Shown here: positions 49,173-49,533 of the stretch, piece after piece
How positions within the stretch are numbered: position 1 is the first letter of the stretch
Layout of the letters: every line of letters begins with the position of its first letter
Source of the DNA: Escherichia phage JoYop
Reading direction: 5' to 3' (one strand)
Length of the DNA stretch: 64,000 bases
Sequence record: OR769032.1
The notes under the pieces: generated by a model
The model's database searches: none
Told to the model about the DNA's origin: nothing
What the model saw: only the letters and a program-made list of their open reading frames with translations
Made by a program: the position numbers and the translations under genes

Positions 49173-49185
49173 TTAGCACCTATAA

Positions 49186-49533
49186 TTAATATGGCTTTGC
49201 ATCAAATTTTCTTTCAATTTCAGGTGTGAAATATAATTCTTTGCCGCGTTTGGAAAAGCGACCAATAATATGATAATTATTCTCATCAAACGTAATATTA
49301 CCAATATCCATAGCTTTCAGCCAAATATCGATATTTCTGTCAAGCTTTATATCAAAATTCCAATACGGAGAACTATTACCGAAAATAATACAAGCGGATT
49401 CAGTAAAACAACTACTATAAATCTTATCTTTAGGAACTACTAATTGATAGACACCTTTAATAAACTGAGGACCTTGCCACTTTGGCTGTTTAGCGTCTTT
49501 TTCTAATAGAATAGGGTAATAATTAAAATTCAT
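49186..49533 (-). CDS. Hypothetical protein (115 aa) inserted between frd and td
   Basis: ORF with ATG start overlapping the frd stop (ATGAATTTTAA); no recognisable motif; absent from this position in T4 where frd and td overlap. Confidence 0.55.

Follow-up and report, generated by a model that had tools for sequence, protein, structure and literature searches.

The 115-codon reading frame between the dihydrofolate reductase gene frd and the thymidylate synthase gene td of Escherichia phage JoYop is td.1, very probably a vertically inherited accessory gene of the frd-td-nrdA operon in T4-like phages of Enterobacterales, and one that T4 has lost. We analyzed it within a 64,000-nucleotide stretch of the phage DNA (record OR769032.1), called the window throughout. 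The td.1 CDS (115 aa plus stop; td.1/x2 family, PHROG 1928) lies on the minus strand at 49186..49533, from the ATG at 49533 to the TAA at 49188..49186. The element is not new: it has stood in GenBank for years as td.1 or RB32ORF229c. A sequence-only reading of the window, which started the feature at 49173 and so included the 13-nt spacer that follows the ORF, had described it as an unrecognised cargo gene. The observation itself, a 115-aa ORF between frd and td that is absent from T4, is confirmed by the ORF call and by junction alignments; the interpretation is partly supported. Taken as a whole, and with identity and evolution weighing more than function, the explanation given below is fairly likely to be right.

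Identity and Conservation of td.1

The window protein and td.1 of T2H and T6 (ABI48932.1) are identical at 114 of 115 residues (99.1%), and identity to the window protein is again 99.1% in more than 100 other records. The name td.1 is annotated in AY262132.2 (T2H) and AY262134.2 (T6), and the same gene is RB32ORF229c in RB14, RB32 and RB51, where the RB14 record adds the note "flanked by 9 bp repeat". With these annotations and PHROG 1928 the term "unrecognised" does not hold. In a family profile search residues 4-111 matched PHROG 1928 (E 8.6e-36), a family annotated with unknown function, and a td.1 family HMM built here matched the window ORF at 3.6e-40. The full-length profile match, the frd-td slot and the motif residues place the ORF in the td.1/PHROG 1928 family.

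By tblastn, td.1 homologs occur in 588 phage records, T2, T6, RB6, RB14, RB27, RB51 and Shfl2 among them, and 362 are at least 90% identical. Most Tequatrovirus records carry the gene. Alignment of the T-even frd-td junctions bears out the absence of the insert from T4; a new insertion is not supported. In the library searched, no papers mention td.1, RB32ORF229c or PHROG 1928, and two candidate papers on defence and accessory genes leave the frd-td locus untouched.

Labels given to td.1 vary among public records (MZ501067, MZ501066, MZ501052, PP526941, OK272476, OK274152, OR125554). The first three, which are BASEL records, have "putative homing endonuclease"; other labels are "reductase", "putative dihydrofolate reductase", "dihydrofolate reductase" and "putative glucose-1-phosphate adenylyltransferase". 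The searches made here back none of these names.

The window shares the position between frd and td, the strand and the operon of td.1 with T2H, T6, RB14 and RB51. At DNA level, however, identity to the closest database allele reaches only about 94%. Over positions 48000-50500 the best database match is likewise 93-94% identical (PinkRuby, teqskov, Shfl2), which indicates that the window belongs to a Tequatrovirus-like phage without a close representative in the collection searched.

When the td.1 alleles of the window, T2H and Bas41 were compared, the pairs of the window with T2H or Bas41 differed by 17-23 synonymous and 1-2 non-synonymous changes, with pS of 0.27-0.36 against pN of 0.004-0.007 and a pN/pS of 0.01-0.03. 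Judged by these substitutions, td.1 is a real gene under strong purifying selection. A chance open frame that is not expressed would fit the weak Shine-Dalgarno (SD) sequence of td.1 (GGCGGAAAATATG) and the lack of a publication documenting a td.1 product. That reading is refuted by the pN/pS signature; homologs at 28-63% identity moreover retain length and motifs, and the AlphaFold2 models are confident, which leaves it a negligible probability. The window holds no terminator and no convincing promoter dedicated to td.1, and no td.1 paralog elsewhere.

The frd and td Junctions of the Window

The frd gene (49523..50140, minus strand; 205 aa; Pfam DHFR_1 3.4e-18, phrog_316) is an extended allele. 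Whereas frd of T2H and T6 ends at a TGA, the window frd lacks this stop and overlaps td.1 by 11 nt, its TAA (49525..49523) falling within the td.1 start (ATGAATTTTAA). The sequence-only reading was thus right about an extended frd that overlaps the next ORF. The read-through tail, 11 residues plus TAA at 49523..49558 (minus strand) in the junction alignments, carries frd 11 codons beyond the T4 C-terminus ...ESVYK. It arose through the insertion of 2 nt in an A-run, combined with a T>C substitution where T2 and T4 have their TGA stop. The junction alignments give the frd end as TATAAAAACGAAATAGC in the window, TATAAATGAAAT/C in T2/T4 and TATAAAAATGAAATACC in RB14/BECP11. In RB14 and BECP11 an AA insertion in the A-run moves frd past the TGA and yields the tail NEIPRGGKYEF, and the window frd end is this insertion with further substitutions; the extended allele is accordingly common to the window and RB14. 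The extension is not an adaptation to the insert; it results from a +2 slip in the A-run that RB14 and BECP11 also have, and its variable tail points to a by-product and not to a functional extension. The slip (AAA to AAAAA, at 49552-49562) forms a recurring allele class, seen in RB14, BECP11 and the window, and adds 11 residues encoded by the spacer to DHFR. Contingency loci of phages are the subject of a 2025 preprint (10.1101/2025.10.21.683753) that might bear on the slip, but the run is short.

On the other side, td (48312..49172, minus strand; 286 aa, intronless; Thymidylat_synt 4.6e-95) starts 13 nt past the td.1 stop. As had been noted, it has its own spacer (TTATAGGTGCTAA, 49173..49185, minus strand) and SD, AGGTG at 49181..49177. 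The corresponding spacer measures 45 nt in T2H, T6 and RB14 and in every other relative fetched; compared with T2H, Bas41, KMB23, BECP11, RB14 and L013, the window has a 32-nt deletion, and none of the best 25 megablast hits is co-linear across the 13-nt spacer. Within the missing stretch (TTAGCTTCATAAAATGTATTATAATTTATATA; compare L001 384-431) are a MotA-box-like TAGCTTCA and a TATAAT, and the window may thus have lost a promoter close to td. T2 has spacings of 20 nt between frd and td.1 and 45 nt between td.1 and td. The +2 slip in frd and the 32-nt deletion would turn this looser arrangement into tight translational coupling, and we infer that coupling is tighter in the window than in T2.

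Further ORFs accompany these genes in the window. Two that are absent from T4 lie between frd and frd.1 on the minus strand, one of 80 aa without a Pfam hit (50144-50386) and one of 110 aa with DUF7247 (50398-50730). Bas41 and Sf21 annotate similar ORFs upstream of frd, and a DUF7247 gene also lies there in the metagenomic contig L031. Between td and nrdA, nrdA.1 (DUF4326, 108 aa) and nrdA.2 (DUF5496, 87 aa) overlap by 47 nt (47745-48288, minus strand). The arrangement is that of T4, and the two ORFs are conserved, uncharacterised members of the operon.

td.1 in Other T4-Like Genera

The frd-td.1 adjacency is found in Tequatrovirus and, beyond it, in no fewer than eight further genera of T4-like phages. 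Homologs lie directly 3' of frd in Kanagawavirus, Mosugukvirus, Jiaodavirus, Gelderlandvirus, Marfavirus, Moonvirus and Winklervirus, and in phages of Erwinia, Serratia and Yersinia the more remote family members also adjoin DHFR/TS. All 24 of the 24 loci with a family member have the order frd > td.1 [> x2] [> 68-76-aa ORF] > td on one strand. Outside Tequatrovirus td.1 is usually followed by a second gene, x2, and sometimes by a 68-aa ORF, the genes being chained by stop/start overlaps. In L031, whose td.1 is 63% identical to that of the window, the chain reads frd > td.1 > x2 > 69 aa > td with a stop/start overlap at every junction. Identities between the window and the other genera are 28-63% for td.1, 41-53% for Frd and 70-78% for Td; td.1 identity tracks that of Frd, as expected for co-inheritance.

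The x2 protein (about 115-124 aa) is a td.1 paralog, since cross-blastp gives values down to 1e-12 and the invariant W, G-x-Y and GRFxKxG...F motifs are common to both. It is the second cassette gene in most non-Tequatrovirus genera (for example PM2 AVV36_gp192, CF1 Cf1_00271 and PEi20 AU156_gp199) and is absent from the window and from every Tequatrovirus locus examined. Length, predicted barrel and operon are similar to those of td.1, whereas x2 differs in an insert of about 20 aa, ALVxxGxxPTIxxYKRNP, predicted as a short helix, and in the absence of the td.1-type C-terminal tail.

The third ORF, of 68-69 aa (MSNKLKVKDVP...), was located at L011 2558-2764, L012 2558-2764, L007 2648-2854, L031 3670-3879 and L016/L017 3649-3876. 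In the frd-td slot of Sf21-type Tequatroviruses it replaces td.1; in other genera it is the last cassette gene. Identity between the ORF of Sf21 and Shinka and the gene that closes the cassette in Marfavirus and L031 is 79-81%, so that this ORF is far more conserved across genera than Frd (about 47%). The Shinka record labels it DUF4858; our Pfam scan gave no match.

This distribution bears on the idea of a cargo gene dropped into the operon. A recently inserted mobile gene, or a free-standing homing endonuclease gene, could explain why td.1 is present in T2 and absent from T4 between two conserved genes, as T-even seg and mob genes are, and why a 9-bp direct repeat flanks it. The "putative homing endonuclease" label of MZ501067, MZ501066 and MZ501052 points the same way, as does the position of td.1 inside the roughly 2-kb co-conversion range of I-TevI (PMC2790892). 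However, td.1 differs from the seg/mob genes in having no nuclease motif or fold, a location fixed across genera and a divergence in step with its neighbours. Neither td.1 nor any relative matches an HNH, GIY-YIG, LAGLIDADG, PD-(D/E)XK or EDxHD profile in Pfam or NCBIfam, invariance is confined to W, G, Y, R, F and K and includes no Asp, Glu or His, and the predicted fold is an OB-like barrel. At 115 aa the protein is also far below the size of the known Seg/Mob enzymes. Its distribution is not sporadic or incongruent with the flanks, as that of a homing endonuclease would be: within Tequatrovirus, presence and absence always concern one site, and the same slot is used in at least eight other genera, with td.1 diverging in step with Frd. 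Recent mobile cargo is therefore largely excluded and, in our judgment, very improbable; an inherited operon gene is the reading that we carry forward.

Probable Loss of td.1 from T4

In T4, as the sequence-only reading had stated, frd and td overlap directly at an ATGA, and there is no td.1. In T2-type phages td.1 lies between two copies of the 9-bp direct repeat TAAATGAAA, and T4 has a single copy at the ATGA overlap. The end of frd reads TAT-AAATGAAA-TAACG and the start of td ACT-AAATGAAA-CAATAC in T2-type phages, and the T4 junction reads TAT-AAATGAAA-CAATAC. The junction alignments place the right copy in the window at 49167..49175 (minus strand), across the td start codon, and a degenerate left copy (TAAAAACGAAA) at 49552..49562 (minus strand). 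The flanks of the T4 junction are 99-100% identical to those of td.1-bearing phages, for example Pu-Krd-SF4 and FriedrichMiescher, which indicates a recent event. The contiguous T4 junction is confined to about 19 records (381 minus 362, by subtraction). About 130 Tequatrovirus records match only the frd half of it; in the two of these that were fetched, Sf21 and Shinka, frd is followed by the 68-aa ORF.

The ancestral layout would have been a translationally coupled chain frd > td.1 > x2 > 68-aa ORF > td, from which Tequatrovirus lineages would have kept different subsets: td.1 only in T2/T6/RB14-type phages and the window, the 68-aa ORF only in Sf21-type phages, and neither in T4-type phages. 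In the T4 lineage a precise deletion between the direct repeats would have yielded the ATGA overlap. Given the outgroup distribution and the repeat pattern, deletion in the T4 lineage is the most economical reading, and the T4 frd/td overlap is best explained, on these alignments, as a derived state produced by precise repeat-mediated deletion. The direction of the event, loss as opposed to gain, rests on the outgroup distribution; the 9-bp repeat could in principle also be the mark of an insertion. The T2-type 45-nt spacer contains no detectable remnants of x2 or the 68-aa ORF, the alignment score being below the shuffle mean.

The td gene of T4 is split by the I-TevI group I intron, and split td genes are also found in L013, L011 and the Proteus phage L006. 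Since td.1 falls within the I-TevI co-conversion range, the empty junction could spread along with the td intron. A strict anticorrelation between td.1 and the td intron was considered and rejected, because L013 and Yersinia phage PST have both; the coexistence of td.1 and a split td in L013 indicates that the two polymorphisms are independent.

Protein Properties and Predicted Fold

Neither td.1, x2 nor the distant members match Pfam or NCBIfam, and the td.1 family profile found nothing below E 0.16 among PDB sequences. No PADLOC profile matched td.1, x2 or the 68-aa ORF at E ≤ 1, PADLOC-DB being a collection of defence and not of anti-defence proteins. These empty searches uphold the statement that the protein has no HNH, GIY-YIG or other motif. 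When 1.84 billion cluster representatives were searched exhaustively with HMMER, only 49 proteins came back, nearly all of 95-150 aa; there were a few large multi-domain matches, and the two of these that we scanned were SprB-repeat proteins and spurious. None of the 49 representative clusters contains a fusion of the td.1 domain to DHFR or TS. Scans of 185,579 species genomes of bacteria and archaea with x2 patterns gave no relatives.

AlphaFold2 models of td.1 and x2 had pLDDT values of 79.7 and 96.2. Foldseek searches against viral models (BFVD) returned only uncharacterised proteins of T4-like phages. Homology search and structure prediction together give a match to PHROG 1928, an OB-like AF2 model and no characterised family; the gene is also absent from T4, so the proposal withstood both observations that could have overturned it. 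The td.1 model may be related in fold to OB domains (RPA14/RPA32, bacterial SSB, PriB, STN1/TEN1, Teb1), on which about 60-70 of its residues superpose. Its predicted beta-barrel has a helix that links strands 3 and 4, and conserved aromatic and basic residues lie on the beta4-beta5 hairpin. The window protein contains all of the invariant residues, W19, G27, Y29, G91, R92, F93, K95, G97 and F102, and the predicted conserved face comprises W19, G27-x-Y29 and the beta4-beta5 hairpin G91-R-F-x-K-x-G97...F102. No Asp, Glu or His is invariant in the td.1/x2 alignments. This profile argues against a nuclease or a metal-dependent enzyme and is compatible with a binding module. The proteins are small (td.1 is roughly 13 kDa) and mildly basic (pI 7.7-9.5 across the family), with 9-19% aromatic residues.

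Possible Functions of td.1

As a member of the frd-td-nrdA transcription unit, td.1 would be carried on an early/middle transcript and be translationally coupled to its neighbours, so that it would be made alongside DHFR and TS. It is dispensable, because T4 does without it. Conserved synteny is common for many unrelated small ORFs of T4-like phages, and position is therefore no proof of a link to thymidylate metabolism. We tentatively propose that td.1 is a small OB-like protein without enzymatic activity that would bind a ligand through its conserved aromatic/basic face. The ligand would be single-stranded nucleic acid or a protein partner from the dNTP-synthesis/replication machinery. That it serves the nucleotide/replication module as an OB-type binder is a possibility inferred from the model and the operon, to which we attach limited confidence.

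Many small early T4 ORFs are of the anti-defence or host-takeover type. If td.1 were such a protein, unrelated to nucleotides, a mere passenger in a conserved early operon and lost where its cognate host function is absent, this would agree with its small size, its dispensability and its restriction to phages (no relative by x2 patterns in the species genomes, and just 49 clusters among the 1.84 billion proteins). The presence/absence polymorphism within one genus and the strong purifying selection where the gene is kept would fit as well. On the other hand, td.1 has no similarity to any described family, and the literature search gave no experimental hint. Its position at frd/td is stable over at least eight other genera, with a divergence that tracks Frd, whereas counter-defence loci typically turn over faster. 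We regard a role in anti-defence or host takeover as possible, though short of probable.

Alternatively, td.1 and x2 could be pure protein adaptors of DHFR and TS in a T4-type dNTP synthetase complex, with no nucleic-acid binding. Translational coupling along frd > td.1 > x2 > td implies that the proteins are produced together in roughly equimolar amounts, and two paralogs in tandem suggest a heterodimer. Small OB subunits that act as heterodimers (RPA14/RPA32, STN1/TEN1, p45/p19) are frequent among the top structural neighbours. However, the complex was defined in T4, which has neither protein, and no DHFR or TS fusions occur. We therefore consider pure adaptors unlikely.

Returning to the OB-type binder, a more specific form of it would make td.1 and x2 an undescribed OB-fold pair, an accessory module of the phage DHFR-TS unit that T4 has deleted. 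Such a pair might tether the dNTP enzymes to ssDNA/gp32 at forks, or control td/frd translation through the mRNA. This is speculative and, as we judge it, quite improbable.

Discussion

As a discovery td.1 is a minor one, for its presence is the majority state in the genus. The evidence given here argues against the endonuclease label on public td.1 records. The frd-td slot holds a conserved three-gene cassette of td.1, x2 and the 68-aa ORF, strongly constrained, uncharacterised and invisible to T4-centred work. If the OB-fold pair did prove to be an accessory module, T4, where the dNTP synthetase complex was defined, would happen to be a phage that has deleted it. The textbook ATGA overlap of T4 frd and td appears to be a secondary product of a deletion between 9-bp repeats and not the ancestral design of the operon.
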